Below the pieces are notes generated by a model. It did not search any database. It was not told the origin of the DNA and was given only the letters and a program-made list of their open reading frames with translations. From Gammaproteobacteria bacterium (GTDB taxonomy: Bacteria > Pseudomonadota > Gammaproteobacteria > Steroidobacterales > JACDCP01): a DNA stretch of 64,000 nucleotides. Positions within the stretch are counted from its first letter, which is position 1, and every line of letters begins with the position of its first letter. Position numbers and translations under genes: made by a program. Below, piece by piece: positions 5,225 to 9,293 of this stretch. The DNA lies in contig DATLFD010000100.1 of NCBI GenBank assembly GCA_035524935.1, positions 57,152 through 121,151 on the forward strand, given 5' to 3'.

Positions 5225-5253
5225 TTGACATCACGCCGTCACTGGTTTAAGTG
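5225..5253 (+). promoter_or_regulatory. weak candidate promoter upstream of the bacteriocin precursor
   Basis: TTGACA (5225-5230), 17-nt spacer, TAAGTG (5248-5253). The -10 is poor. A GGTTGTCAACC palindrome follows at 5282-5292. Confidence 0.25.
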
Positions 5254-5314
5254 TCATAGATGCGGCCCGATCAGGGCCGTGGGTTGTCAACCGCATCATC
5301 CAGGGAGAGGAGTC

Positions 5315-5533
5315 ATGCGTGAACTGACCCACGACGAAGTGAATTTCGTCAGCGGAGGAAACTGGGACATTCTGACGAGCCCGACCCAGGTCGCGCAGGC
5401 GTCACGCTTCGCGGCCAGCCTGAGCATGGCGTATGGAGCCTTTCAGGTGGGTTTTGCTTTCGGCTCGTGGCTGTACAACAACGGTCTCGGCTCGGCGTGG
5501 AACAGGTTCCTCGACAGCCGAATGGCGAAATAG
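5315..5533 (+). CDS. double-glycine-leader bacteriocin / class II microcin-like precursor (72 aa)
   Basis: Internal ATG of ORF 5207..5533 preceded by GGAGAGG. The 15-aa leader MRELTHDEVNFVSGG matches the M-R-x-L-T-x-x-E-x-x-x-V-S-G-G pattern of the colicin V leader. The 57-aa Cys-free core is Gly/Ala/aromatic-rich (AYGAFQVGFAFGSWLY). It sits immediately upstream of a C39-ABC exporter. Confidence 0.7.
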   Translation: MRELTHDEVNFVSGGNWDILTSPTQVAQASRFAASLSMAYGAFQVGFAFGSWLYNNGLGSAWNRFLDSRMAK

Positions 5534-5551
5534 GCCGTAGCCTTGGGGCAC

Positions 5552-5613: not shown

Positions 5614-5889
5614 ATGATTCGCTACAAGCACGCCGCATTGACCGTCAGCATGCTGCTGATGGGCGGCTACATGTTTCTGCGCTTCGGCGCGCTGGTCGCG
5701 GCCGGCGACCACGACGCAGCGTTTCTCCATGCCACACTGGGGTTCTGCGCCGTCGGCGCGGCAACCGAGCCCGGCTTCCTGCTGCGCAACGTGTCCGCAC
5801 TGATATCCGAGCCGCTGCCGGCGTCGAAGCTCACGTCGGCCGCTTACGGCCTCGCGCTTCTGTCGGCCGTGATCTGGGCCATTCTGTAA
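5614..5889 (+). CDS. small 3-TM membrane protein, candidate bacteriocin immunity protein (91 aa)
   Basis: Internal ATG of ORF 5467..5889 preceded by GGGAGA. Three hydrophobic segments. Function is inferred only from position between precursor and exporter genes. Confidence 0.5.
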   Translation: MIRYKHAALTVSMLLMGGYMFLRFGALVAAGDHDAAFLHATLGFCAVGAATEPGFLLRNVSALISEPLPASKLTSAAYGLALLSAVIWAIL

Positions 5890-5931
5890 CGCCCGGCAGC
5901 CTGCGCGCGCGGGGCGCCGCATGAGCGTGTC

Positions 5932-7185
5932 ATGGATGACGCGGCCCTGTTCCGGCGCGAGGCGATCGCGCACCGAGGTGACAGCCTGTTCGGCGGCGTG
6001 GCGCTGCTGCGGCCGGCTTCGTTCGCCCTGGCGACGGCCCTGGCGCTCGGCGCCTCGACGGCGCTCACCGCGCTGGTCCTGCTCGGCAGCTACGCCCCGC
6101 GCGAGACTGTCGCCGGGTATCTGACTCCCGCTCCCGGACTGGTCAAGATACTCGCGCCTCAGTCCGGCATCATCGAAAGCACGCCGTTCCGCGAAGGCGA
6201 CAGCGTTGCGGCCGGAGACGCGTTGTTCGTGGTGCTCACGTCCCGCCACGACGCTGCACGAAGCGACGTGGATGCGCGCCTGCTCGAGCAGCTCGGCATC
6301 GAGCGGCTGGCGCTGCAGGCGCAGCGAGACCGGCAGCTCGAGCTCGACGGCATGGCCCTGGCCGCGGCCGCCCAGGACGTCGTCGCTGCGAAGGCTCAGC
6401 TCACGCTTCTCGAGCGGCAGCGCATGGGCTTCGACGAGCGCGTGTCCCGCCGCGAGCTCGAAGTCGCGCGCCTCGCGCCGGTCGTGGGCTCGGGTCACGT
6501 GCCCGCCGCACGGCTCGAGGAGGCGCGCGCGGCGCTGCTCGAGGCCCGGCTCGCACGCCAGGAGATGGACCGCGAAGCGGCCGCGCTCGAAGCCCTGCTT
6601 GAGACCCGGCTGCGCGAGCGCGCGAGCCTGCCGGCCCGCCACGCCCTCCGCCTCGGCCAGCTCGATCAGGCAATCAGCGTCGTCGACCAGCGCATCGCCG
6701 AGCTGGGCCTGCAGCGAGGCTATACGCTCACCGCGCCGGTGGCCGGATACATCGGCAGCCTGCTCGCCTTCCCTGGCATGGGTGTCGTGCCGGGCCGCGC
6801 GCTCGCGGCGCTGATTCCCGAGCATGCGCAGCTGCGCGCCGAGTTGCTCGTGCCGGCGCGCAATGCCGGCTTGCTCAAGACCGGCCAGACCGTGCGCCTG
6901 CGATACGACGCCTGGCCGCACACGAGGTTCGGCCTGCATGAGGGCATAGTCACGGCAATCGGCCGTTCAATCCTCATGCCGGAAGAGATGCACGGACCTC
7001 ACCGCCTGCCCGGGCCCGCTTACCGTGTCGAGGTGCGGCTGCCCGCCCAGAGCATCATCTCGGATGGACGCGCGTGGCCGCTCAAGGCCGGCATGACGCT
7101 CGAGGCCGATATCGTGCGCGAACGCCGGCGCATCGTCGAATGGCTGTTCGAACCCGTAGTCGCCGCCCTGCAGCGCGCGCGATGA
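5932..7185 (+). CDS. HlyD-family membrane fusion protein (CvaA-like bacteriocin secretion adaptor)
   Basis: N-terminus MDDAALFRREAI..., a single TM, then long coiled-coil segments. Stop overlaps the exporter start (ATGA). Confidence 0.85.
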   Translation: MDDAALFRREAIAHRGDSLFGGVALLRPASFALATALALGASTALTALVLLGSYAPRETVAGYLTPAPGLVKILAPQSGIIESTPFREGDSVAAGDALFVVLTSRHDAARSDVDARLLEQLGIERLALQAQRDRQLELDGMALAAAAQDVVAAKAQLTLLERQRMGFDERVSRRELEVARLAPVVGSGHVPAARLEEARAALLEARLARQEMDREAAALEALLETRLRERASLPARHALRLGQLDQAISVVDQRIAELGLQRGYTLTAPVAGYIGSLLAFPGMGVVPGRALAALIPEHAQLRAELLVPARNAGLLKTGQTVRLRYDAWPHTRFGLHEGIVTAIGRSILMPEEMHGPHRLPGPAYRVEVRLPAQSIISDGRAWPLKAGMTLEADIVRERRRIVEWLFEPVVAALQRAR

Positions 7186-9293
7186 GCGTGCCGCTCGCCC
7201 TGCGCGGCCGGAGCCGCACCCCCGTGGTGCTGCAGACGGAGGCGGCCGAGTGCGGGCTCGCCTGCCTCGCGATGGTGGCCGGTCATTACGGCCTCGATAT
7301 CGACCTGGGTGCGCTGCGCCGACGCGCGAGCGTCTCGCTCAGGGGCACCGCGCTGTCGCGGCTCATGGAGATCGCCGGCGGGCTGGGTCTCTGCGCGCGG
7401 GCCGTGCGACTCGAGCCCGCCGAGCTGGGCCGGTTGCGCCATCCCGCCATCCTGCACTGGAGCTTCGATCACTTCGTAGTGCTCGAGCGAAGCCGGGCCC
7501 GGCGCGCCGATATCCTCGACCCGGGGGTCGGCCGCCGCTGCATCGGAGCGGGCGAGCTGTCAGCGTGCTTCACGGGGGTCGCACTCGAGCTGTCGCCAGG
7601 CGCGAACTTCCGGCGTGGACGCGAACGCACGCGGCTGCCGCTGCGCGCTTTCTTCCGCGACGCGAGCGGGCTCATGCCCGCGTTGCTGCAGATACTCTCG
7701 CTGACGCTGGCGCTGCAGGTCTTCGCGCTGGTGGCCCCCTTCTACGGCCAGCTGGTCATCGACGAAGTCGTCATCTCGGCCGATCGCGCGCTGCTCGATC
7801 TTCTCGCGCTGGCTTTCGCGTTGCTCGTGCTCCTGCAGCTCACGGTCGGCGCATTCCGCTCCTGGATCGTGATCTATATCGGCTCGCAGCTGCGCTATGC
7901 CTGGTCCGCGCGGCTGTTTCGCCAGCTGCTGAGCCTGCCCCTGGGCTATTTCGAAAAGCGGCACATGGGAGACATCGTGTCGCGCTTCGGCTCGCTCCGT
8001 TCGATCGAGTCGCTGATTGCGCATTCCGCTGTCGAGGCCGTCGTCGACGGGCTCATGGCATCGACGACGCTCGCCGTCATGTTCGTTTACGAGCCGCGGC
8101 TCGCGTTCGTCGCAGCCGCGGCCACCGCCGCCTACGGGCTCACGCGGAGTGGCTTCTATATCCCGCAGCGGCTGCGGTCGCAGGAGGCGCTCATCGCCGG
8201 GGCGCGCGAGCAATCGCTGTTCATGGAATCGGTGCGCGCGATCCAGGCCATCAAGTGCTTCGGCGGGGAGCGGCATCGCGAGTCGTCGTGGCTCAATCGG
8301 CTCGCCGGTGCCGTCGGCGCCGACGTGCGCGTGCACAAGCTCGGCATCGGCGAGAAGCTAGCCGAGGACCTGCTGTTCGGGCTGGAAAACGTGGTCGTGC
8401 TGTTTCTCGGCGCGCTGGCGGTCATCGACGGCAGGCTTTCGATCGGCATGCTCGTGGCATTCCTGTCCTACAAGGCGCAGTTCGGCGCGCGAGCCGTGGC
8501 CCTCATCGACAAGGCCGTCGATTTCCGGCTCGCGGCCGTGCATCTCGAACGCCTGGCCGATATCGTGCACGCGGAACCCGAGCGCACTTCCAGCGTGCCG
8601 CGCGGCGAATTTCCGGTGCCGCGCGGTCGCATCGAGGTGCGCAGGCTCTCGTTCCGGTACGCGGAAGCCGAGCCGTTCGTCCTGTCCCGCCTGGATCTCG
8701 ACGTGGCGCCGGGCGAGTGCCTCGCGATCGCCGCGCCGTCCGGCCACGGCAAGACCACGCTGCTCAAGCTCATGCTCGGTCTGCTCGAGCCCAGCGAAGG
8801 CGCGATCCTCGTCGACGGCCGCGACCTCCGGCTGGCGGACCTCCACGCCTACAGGCAGCAGGTCGCGGCAGTCATGCAACACGATCATCTCCTGAGCGGC
8901 TCGCTCGCTGAAAACATCGCGTTCTTTGCGGCGCGCCCGGACGAGCAGCGCATCGTGGCCTGCGCGCGGCTGGCCTGCGTGGACGAGGACATCCTGCGCA
9001 TGCCGATGGGCTATCAGAGTCTCGTCGGCGACATGGGCGCGGCGCTGTCGGGCGGCCAGAAGCAGCGCCTGCTGCTCGCCCGCGCGCTCTACCGCGAGCC
9101 GCGCATATTGTTTCTCGACGAGGCAACCAGCCATCTCGACGCGCCGACCGAGGCGCGGATCCTGGCCATGCTCGCGGGACTCGGCATCACGCGCGTGCTG
9201 ATTGCGCATCGCCGTCAGACGCTTGCACACGCGGATCGCATTTTCGAGCTCGACTCAGCCGGCCCGGCGGGGCACAACGGCGGAGGCCGGTGA
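7182..9293 (+). CDS. peptidase C39-domain ABC transporter (CvaB-like bacteriocin exporter/maturation protease)
   Basis: Start MSVPLALRG within ORF 7074..9293. C39 motif QTEAAECGLACLAMVAGHYG retains the catalytic Cys. Six-TM ABC membrane domain. Walker A PSGHGKTT, signature LSGGQKQR, Walker B LFLDEATSHLD. Confidence 0.9.
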   Translation: MSVPLALRGRSRTPVVLQTEAAECGLACLAMVAGHYGLDIDLGALRRRASVSLRGTALSRLMEIAGGLGLCARAVRLEPAELGRLRHPAILHWSFDHFVVLERSRARRADILDPGVGRRCIGAGELSACFTGVALELSPGANFRRGRERTRLPLRAFFRDASGLMPALLQILSLTLALQVFALVAPFYGQLVIDEVVISADRALLDLLALAFALLVLLQLTVGAFRSWIVIYIGSQLRYAWSARLFRQLLSLPLGYFEKRHMGDIVSRFGSLRSIESLIAHSAVEAVVDGLMASTTLAVMFVYEPRLAFVAAAATAAYGLTRSGFYIPQRLRSQEALIAGAREQSLFMESVRAIQAIKCFGGERHRESSWLNRLAGAVGADVRVHKLGIGEKLAEDLLFGLENVVVLFLGALAVIDGRLSIGMLVAFLSYKAQFGARAVALIDKAVDFRLAAVHLERLADIVHAEPERTSSVPRGEFPVPRGRIEVRRLSFRYAEAEPFVLSRLDLDVAPGECLAIAAPSGHGKTTLLKLMLGLLEPSEGAILVDGRDLRLADLHAYRQQVAAVMQHDHLLSGSLAENIAFFAARPDEQRIVACARLACVDEDILRMPMGYQSLVGDMGAALSGGQKQRLLLARALYREPRILFLDEATSHLDAPTEARILAMLAGLGITRVLIAHRRQTLAHADRIFELDSAGPAGHNGGGR

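Follow-up and report, generated by a model that had tools for sequence, protein, structure and literature searches.

Only a few dozen class II microcins have been validated, and almost all of these are from Enterobacterales. The class is defined by a signal of 15–18 residues ending in Gly-Gly or Gly-Ala, an ABC transporter of the peptidase-containing kind (PCAT) with a C39 domain, a membrane fusion protein (MFP), a membrane immunity protein, a TolC-type factor and an antibacterial peptide of ∼5–10 kDa, and in its usual layout the pre-microcin is adjoined by a small multi-helix membrane immunity protein (PMC10233263). Surveys of predicted members have taken in Enterobacterales, metagenomes from the gut and a small number of genera that live with plants, and since 2022 the class has been argued, mainly from signal-sequence searches, to be widespread (PMC9746304, PMC12219008). 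Here we describe a putative locus of this kind in a 64-kb stretch of contig DATLFD010000100.1 (the whole stretch is called the window below), from an uncultured high-GC (67%) gammaproteobacterium that probably dwells in soil. An open reading frame (ORF) and domain scan placed four co-linear genes on the (+) strand, encoding a 72-residue precursor (5315..5533), a 91-residue membrane protein (5614..5889), an HlyD/CvaA-type periplasmic adaptor (5932..7185) and a CvaB-type PCAT (7182..9293). The four genes are probably transcribed as a single unit with the precursor first, and we consider it probable that they form a class IIa-like (unmodified) class II microcin system of precursor, immunity protein, adaptor and exporter. 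A preliminary description of this DNA had proposed a class II microcin-like locus, and the reading is supported by the catalytic triad of the exporter, the leader motif, purifying selection on the precursor and a conserved precursor–exporter neighbourhood; the order that it gave (precursor, hairpin, 91-residue three-helix ORF, HlyD-family gene, C39 ABC exporter) was confirmed. Gene content and order, catalytic residues, leader consensus, purifying selection and co-occurrence across orthologous and distant loci make up the evidence that follows.

The pre-microcin gene comprises a leader (5315–5359), a core (5360–5530) and a stop codon (5531–5533), and translates to the leader MRELTHDEVNFVSGG followed by the core NWDILTSPTQVAQASRFAASLSMAYGAFQVGFAFGSWLYNNGLGSAWNRFLDSRMAK. 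A strong Shine–Dalgarno sequence, GGGAGAGGAG at 5303–5312, lies close 5′ of the start codon, so that the 72-residue ORF with a good ribosome-binding site and a 15-residue double-glycine leader is present as first described. In the leader, positions −4 (V), −7 (V), −12 (L) and −15 (M) are hydrophobic, position −8 is Glu and positions −2/−1 are Gly-Gly, and residues of these kinds at these positions are the double-glycine determinants of C39 substrates. It also matches M...Rx[IL]x9G[GAS], the class II microcin signal regular expression used as the leader definition by Parker et al. (PMC12219008). A stricter double-glycine-leader pattern, tried at every possible start codon in six frames, matched one ORF in the window, the precursor, with ∼0.13 matches expected in random sequence of equal dinucleotide make-up. 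The precursor is present as a single copy in the window and lies directly 5′ of the putative immunity and export genes, among them the window's only PCAT. The colicin V leader had been given correctly in the preliminary description: read from a real ColV plasmid it is MRTLTLNELDSVSGG, of the same length as the leader here and identical to it at 9 of 15 positions.

Comparison among loci indicates that the precursor is a real gene, because it has homologues of conserved length and its ratio of non-synonymous to synonymous substitution rates (dN/dS) is well below 1. A search among 5.8 billion proteins returned five homologues of 71–73 residues at 61–92% identity, and fetched contigs extended the orthologues down to 56% identity (full range 56–92%, 71–73 residues), with the MRELT...GG leader invariant over that range. 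Across orthologue pairs dN/dS was 0.08–0.36; the unsaturated pairs gave 0.095 (dS 0.42), 0.23 (dS 0.54) and 0.19 (dS 0.84). The claim that the gene is too small for standard gene finders fails, since standard pipelines had called it, merely without a functional name: it is hypothetical protein VM616_11160 (HUO83401.1) in NCBI, in a TPA (third-party annotation) metagenome-assembled record with a contig of 136 kb, whose neighbouring entries are HUO83402.1 and HUO83403.1, and the ORF is also called in ENA and Logan assemblies. The precursor is, as had been noted, lower in GC than its neighbours (0.59 versus 0.66–0.72), but this does not hold as a sign of foreign origin. The deficit lies mostly at codon position 1 (0.53 versus 0.73–0.80 in neighbouring genes) and is thus a matter of amino-acid composition, GC at codon position 3 (GC3) being 0.77 in the precursor and 0.85–0.87 in the exporter, adaptor and membrane protein genes. 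Foreign origin was rejected on this position-1 effect, on the host-like GC3 of the exporter genes and on a divergence like that of the housekeeping neighbours. A 498-residue antisense ORF (5443–6939, (−) strand), which runs over the 3′ end of the precursor, the putative immunity gene and the adaptor, is no gene but a shadow ORF of high-GC DNA; its codon GC (GC3 0.78, position 1 0.83) is unlike that of real genes.

The exporter (703 residues) matched the Pfam domains Peptidase_C39 (1e-30), ABC_membrane (8.5e-32) and ABC_tran (3e-29), and aligned with Escherichia coli CvaB at 39.8% identity over 694 columns (E = 4.5e-167), compared with ∼29% for the haemolysin-type transporter EhxB. The catalytic triad of CvaB is Cys32/His105/Asp121 (PMC10233263). 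Residues C24, H97 and D113 of the exporter, within a C39 domain at approximately residues 13–141, align with this triad, and Q18 is the oxyanion Gln. The best PDB match was PCAT1 (4RY2; E = 5.7e-94), which aligned over the full length, so that within the C39 domain the Gln, Cys, His and Asp all have their counterparts. HlyB-type transporters carry an inactive C39-like domain. Because the triad and the oxyanion Gln align, the C39 domain here is, on the alignments, a true peptidase domain and not one of the HlyB type, and the catalytic Cys that had been picked out at first sight is indeed kept (C24, with H97/D113). Homologues of the exporter at 50–58% identity are labelled CvaB, MchF or RaxB by JGI.

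The adaptor, a membrane fusion protein of 417 residues (HUO83403.1), matched HlyD_3 (1e-13) and HlyD_D23 (4e-11) in Pfam and aligned with E. coli CvaA at 23.5% identity over 439 columns (E = 1e-27). The exporter start overlaps the adaptor stop as ATGA at 7182–7185, which confirms the proposed coupling of the last two genes. Neither protein reached a curated cut-off among the NCBIfam equivalogs: the adaptor matched TIGR01843 at 2.7e-33, under the cut-off, the exporter reached 471 of the 853 bits required by the NHLP exporter model TIGR03796, and TIGR03794 gave 34 of the required 156 bits. The pair therefore appears to be CvaAB-like but of a distinct lineage. An NHLP/Nif11 system was rejected on these two scores and on the leader, which is of the short, 15-residue double-glycine type.

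Between precursor and adaptor, starting 80 nt 3′ of the precursor, lies the gene for the 91-residue membrane protein (HUO83402.1), whose hydropathy profile shows three hydrophobic helices. A single-sequence AlphaFold (AF2) run placed helices at residues 2–30, 33–51, 53–65 and 70–90 (predicted local distance difference test (pLDDT) score 75), that is, three hydrophobic helices and a short connecting helix with a conserved EPxF motif; the full conserved motif is A-[AT]-E-P-x-F-L-x-x-x-V-S. The protein matched no model in Pfam or NCBIfam. Its gene has a dN/dS of 0.25 against the nearest orthologue, and a small ORF of 91–109 residues follows the precursor in every orthologous locus and in several distant relatives. 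By analogy with known layouts we regard the protein as a candidate immunity factor.

The predicted core has 57 residues, a mass of 6.28 kDa, a pI of 9.7 and no Cys; it starts NWDILT, ends ...FLDSRMAK and has a moderately hydrophobic centre. Its length and lack of Cys agree with what had been described, whereas the composition (A9 S7 G5 F5 L5 N4 W3 Y2) makes it rich in Ala, Ser, Gly and aromatic residues rather than strictly in Gly, Ala, Trp and Tyr. An AF2 model of the precursor, built with an alignment of 29 family members, is helical (pLDDT 82, above 90 in the long helix) and consists of a leader helix (6–12), a Gly-Gly turn, a short helix (18–21), a 33-residue helix (23–55) and a C-terminal helix (59–70). 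The initial impression that the core is unlike known microcins was borne out. The window peptide had no Pfam match even at E ≤ 10 and the core no BLASTP similarity to CvaC, which excludes the MccV peptide family (PF17508); no NCBIfam model matched the core, a profile of the peptide gave only noise against PDB sequences, a Foldseek search of the model against PDB returned no match, and a literature search with core motif strings through 8 million full texts found neither the core nor the family motifs. Features of siderophore microcins were also not found: there is no Gly/Ser-rich C-terminal tail, and the flanks hold no glycosyltransferase or esterase genes. The two Tyr residues, Tyr25 and Tyr39, have no acidic neighbours. 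Given the absence of Cys, of a siderophore tail and of conserved tailoring genes, the core is best classed as a class IIa-like, unmodified peptide; class IIb was rejected because the C-terminus has no siderophore motif and the flanks no modification genes.

How does this locus compare with described systems? With microcin V it shares the four dedicated components (the immunity protein as a candidate), a 15-residue leader (9/15 identical between MRELTHDEVNFVSGG and MRTLTLNELDSVSGG), an exporter and adaptor akin to CvaB (39.8%) and CvaA (23.5%), a small membrane protein beside the precursor and, presumably, an outer-membrane channel encoded elsewhere. It differs in that neither the core nor the immunity candidate has detectable similarity to CvaC or Cvi; CvaC has 88 residues with two C-terminal Cys, whereas the core here has 57 and is Cys-free. 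Moreover, in ColV cvi–cvaC is convergent to cvaA–cvaB, whereas the four genes here are co-linear with the precursor first, and microcin V is plasmid-borne, whereas this locus is chromosomal, syntenic and apparently vertical, in a 67%-GC gammaproteobacterium. As in the predicted class II microcins, the precursor is shorter than 150 residues, carries the signal motif and has a PCAT and an MFP nearby (PMC12219008, PMC9746304). Among the features used to define the class we find the signal, a PCAT whose triad is intact, the MFP and, by its presence, a small membrane protein next to the precursor, and the predicted mature mass of 6.28 kDa compares with the ∼5–10 kDa of that definition (PMC10233263). 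The double-glycine leader and the predicted helical, unmodified GxxxG core and PCAT export are shared with Gram-positive class IIb/IId bacteriocins (TIGR03949, PF10439), from which the locus differs in its Gram-negative host with need of an adaptor and in having a single peptide, not a pair. Membership of TIGR03949 was rejected, the window peptide itself giving no match (cut-off 21.5 bits), and the matches of its relatives to that model cover mostly the leader (profile positions 2–16). PCAT1 of Clostridium thermocellum and ComA, which show moderate identity to the exporter here, are Gram-positive single-membrane exporters that work without an adaptor.

At least five further metagenomic loci carry the four-gene block at a matching place in the chromosome, and two more contigs are truncated. 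It is complete in two metagenome-assembled genomes (L001, JBOIDB010000024; L004, JACDCP010000025) and in a soil-metagenome contig (L022), in each of which the order is DUF4340, precursor, small membrane ORF, adaptor and C39-ABC exporter, followed by a shared neighbourhood of Asparaginase_2, Sulfotransfer_5, Aminotran_4 and M56-TonB_C genes. Five partial contigs (L007–L010, L014) show the same order. Scanning metagenomes with alignment A1 added one short contig, and scanning them with the distant-member alignment A3 confirmed nothing. The preliminary description had looked to a small double-glycine ORF beside orthologous exporters as a check on its reading; when this check was run, such an ORF was present in orthologous and in distantly related loci. 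Between the window and L001, identity was 68% for the precursor, 67% for the exporter, 54% for the adaptor and 23% for the small membrane protein, with the flanking housekeeping genes at 59–81%. The junction 3′ of the exporter is a variable spot in this otherwise syntenic region. In the window it holds a pyridoxal phosphate (PLP)-dependent decarboxylase gene (9337..10812, (+) strand; Pyridoxal_deC 9e-67, weakly like diaminobutyrate (DABA) decarboxylase) 44 nt after the exporter stop; this gene is not at that position in L001, L004 or L022 and so is not a conserved part of the system. In L022 two ORFs without assignment stand in place of the M19 dipeptidase.

The precursor is preceded by a conserved non-coding block (5205..5314, (+) strand) that contains TTGACA (5225–5230), TGTCATAGATGCGG (5252–5265), a stem-loop (5262–5281) and the Shine–Dalgarno sequence. 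Aligned from seven loci whose synonymous sites are largely saturated, the block spans 129 columns, of which 40 are invariant. TGTCATAGATGCGG is invariant and TTGACA is kept in most loci; 17 nt after TTGACA stands the hexamer TAAGTG, by eye, with an invariant G at position 6. The short stem-loop, GCGGCC/GGCCG(Y), is also kept, one loop-closing pair changing from GC to CG in two loci. A second copy of the invariant element TGTCATAnATGCGG was not found in the window. The spacing upstream of the precursor fits neither a sigma-54 nor a sigma-32 promoter, and the window contains no Rfam family, a search of 5100–5950 at E ≤ 10 giving only noise. The block is presumed to contain promoter, operator and 5′ untranslated region, and may serve a dedicated regulator as operator or as a promoter of an unusual type. 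Over ∼110 nt its conservation is nearly that of coding sequence, which is unusual for a bacteriocin locus.

Directly after the precursor stop codon there is a GC-rich stem-loop with a 14-bp stem and no clear U-tract (5551..5581, (+) strand), and the 86-nt region around it folds at −49.8 kcal mol−1 (z = −3.9). A matching hairpin of 11–14 bp follows the precursor stop in all six loci examined. Its retention at the same place with different stem sequences argues for selection on the structure. The hairpin may act as a partial terminator or a 3′ stabilizer that raises precursor mRNA relative to exporter mRNA.

A HMMER profile search of 1.84 billion representative proteins returned 30 hits, of which ∼23 were small double-glycine-leader peptides, and a word-indexed profile search contributed further members, from Rheinheimera mangrovi and R. 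soli, each carrying the annotation 'hypothetical protein'. The family thus found has ∼40 members and no curated model; its core signature is [IL]F-x-x-x-N-x-A-x-A-[ST]-R-[FL]-A-G-G-L-G-L-L-Y-G-S-F-x-V-G-[YFW]-x-x-G-[ST]-x-x-Y, and G46xxxG50 (precursor numbering) is invariant. Where contigs were long enough, relatives at ∼40% identity from lower-GC bacteria lie beside an MFP and a PCAT, the exporters being 45–51% identical to that of the window. A membrane ORF of 91–98 residues follows the precursor in most distant relatives, and in the one from contig L011, with 40% GC, the window protein's A-T-E-P-E-F motif is retained. Gene order varies among these loci: adaptor, precursor, 98-residue ORF and PCAT in L017; adaptor, GerE, small ORFs, precursor, JmjC, PCAT and M16 peptidase in L019 and L020. 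In the latter two (L019 2733–7179, JGI 3300042257; L020, Logan SRR35194510) an 86-residue family member is accompanied by a GerE regulator and a JmjC/cupin_8 gene before the PCAT, as well as by a second peptide of 40 residues with a GA-type leader (MMRTLSILEMELVSGAG, followed by DVSDAVTVGGTVALYVWGCAGII), and the locus may be a modified or multi-peptide variant. In R. mangrovi (L015 7607–8551; CP034683.1) a 65-residue precursor and a 97-residue membrane ORF stand beside Abi_2 and insertion sequence (IS) elements. The small membrane partner is thus kept beside the precursor in Rheinheimera although there is no exporter within 8 kb on either side.

Several apparent members were discarded. Matches in Eisenbacteria and Fermentibacteria metagenome-assembled genomes (L005, L006; 35–37% identity) at first seemed distant members; that in L005 was rejected as a chance hydrophobic match inside a 703-residue multi-pass membrane protein. 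In P0007, P0014, P0022, P0025 and P0032 a VGFAFGSWLY segment matched 4–10 stretches of Flg_new (Listeria–Bacteroides repeat) proteins, and P0026 is a cadherin-repeat protein; in all six, weak repeat matches had been summed, and none is a homologue.

From these features we infer cleavage, secretion, antibacterial activity, a membrane target, a role in immunity and a regulatory role for the hairpin, as follows. The 72-residue pre-peptide would be made in the cytoplasm, and its 15-residue leader would dock in the N-terminal C39 cysteine-peptidase domain of the exporter, which would cut after Gly15 and pump out the basic, Cys-free core of 57 residues and 6.3 kDa starting NWDILT. From the exporter, ATP-driven export would lead by way of the HlyD-type adaptor to a TolC-like channel in the outer membrane, encoded elsewhere, and no periplasmic intermediate would arise. 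For the mature peptide a long, moderately hydrophobic helix with the G46xxxG50 packing motif is predicted, and the peptide would insert into the inner membrane of related bacteria, or bind a protein there, so that membrane integrity would presumably be lost; the co-transcribed 91-residue membrane protein would shield the producer. The stem-loop after the precursor stop, probably with one near the 5′ end of the transcript, would keep the ratio of precursor to exporter mRNA high.

A number of observations weigh against a class II microcin. The window peptide was below detection by every bacteriocin model. Among the 29 aligned family members, matches to such models were weak and came mostly through the leader (TIGR03949 in 19, PF10439 in 11, PF17508 in 5); only one, the distant relative P0030, reached a curated core-family cut-off, and then just (TIGR03949, 24.6 versus 21.5 bits), the close orthologues scoring 10–14 bits on the leader only. 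No sigma-70 consensus promoter was found between 5100 and 9500, and 3′ of the exporter there is only a T-run, without a significant hairpin (z = +0.7). The ORFs scanned, covering most of the window, held no OEP/TolC domain, and the outer-membrane component is therefore assumed; since tolC is also unlinked to the microcin V genes in E. coli, we do not count this against membership of the class. Toxin and immunity protein are expected to co-vary tightly, yet among orthologous loci the peptide is 56–68% and the putative immunity protein 23–34% identical. Finally, because its gene identities are comparable to those of flanking housekeeping genes, the locus seems to have co-diverged with the chromosome, apparently inherited vertically at a fixed site. 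Classical microcins are strain-variable and mobile, whereas this locus is vertical and syntenic.

These last features would also suit an exported peptide that is no weapon but a lineage-wide secreted signal or physiological factor, pheromone-like or membrane-active and autocrine, with the membrane protein as its receptor or chaperone. The double-glycine/PCAT route does export the pheromones ComC and BlpC of Gram-positives and RaxX of Xanthomonas, and JGI labels some related exporters RaxB. The shared chromosomal site in at least five further loci, with divergence in step with the housekeeping flanks, the single precursor copy, the strong purifying selection on a peptide much better conserved than its membrane partner, and the unusually conserved upstream block of ∼110 nt, which suggests tight lineage-wide regulation, all point the same way. 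We nevertheless think such a role unlikely. Next to the locus there is neither a histidine kinase/response regulator pair nor any further receptor gene; a 57-residue core with a hydrophobic GxxxG helix is of bacteriocin and not pheromone size; some distant relatives stand in multi-peptide bacteriocin-like loci or beside Abi and IS elements; and the standard layout for a toxin and its immunity protein is the one seen here, with a small multi-helix membrane protein after the precursor (PMC10233263). A little more doubtful still is the idea of a 'domesticated' microcin-type export module turned to signalling, kin recognition or envelope physiology, with a dedicated regulator acting at TGTCATAnATGCGG, which the fixed site, the far better conservation of the peptide than of its partner and the conserved ∼110-nt cis-regulatory leader would suggest. 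[quoted passage not shown] L001, L004 and L022 keep the peptide without the decarboxylase. The sulfotransferase (PF19798) belongs to the conserved flank and lies beyond unrelated genes, one of them on the opposite strand, and RaxST belongs to a different Pfam family; with that position of the gene, and with neither Tyr25 nor Tyr39 in the acidic context of sulfation, a RaxX/RaxST/RaxA/RaxB system was rejected. The core itself has no Cys, Ser/Thr-rich region or siderophore tail. Least credible of all is that the small ORF arose by chance or is a decayed remnant, the exporter serving an unlinked substrate. The peptide does fall in no curated family, and spurious ORFs abound in high-GC DNA, but comparative data effectively refute the notion: dN/dS lies far under 1 and synonymous changes are numerous, the length of 71–73 residues and the MRELT...GG leader are kept to 56% identity, the Shine–Dalgarno sequence GGGAGAGGAG is strong, and the window's only strict-leader ORF lies just upstream of its only PCAT.

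Elsewhere in the window, a MacAB-like efflux operon (18440–26057, (−) strand) encodes an HlyD adaptor, an ABC ATPase and a pair of FtsX/MacB permeases; its neighbours are genes for a histidine kinase and for a response regulator of the sigma-54-dependent type. A phage-shock cluster (49986–52911) comprises PspA/IM30 (50940–51755, (−)), PspC (49986–50492, (−)) and a divergent PspF-like sigma-54 activator (51796–52911, (+)). This membrane-stress system shares its genome with a predicted membrane-active peptide. A stop-to-stop frame of 729 codons at 39866–42055 (+) has gene-like codons (GC3 0.83) and no Pfam domain at E ≤ 1e-5.

The class II microcin system that we favour is of a type already known, given the literature since 2022 that argues for its wide occurrence; within it, the core peptide represents a new family of sequences, from a lineage not sampled before. 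Our understanding of how class II microcin systems work is unchanged by the locus, which will not surprise a specialist. Its contribution is a candidate with clear boundaries from a gammaproteobacterium that is uncultured, high in GC and probably soil-dwelling; the family alignment could seed a new hidden Markov model for bacteriocin mining, and the 57-mer is short enough to synthesize. Only two features, the vertical inheritance and the conserved element upstream, might open an unexpected direction. Together, syntenic vertical descent and a conserved regulatory block would offer a handle on microcin regulation outside the enterics.

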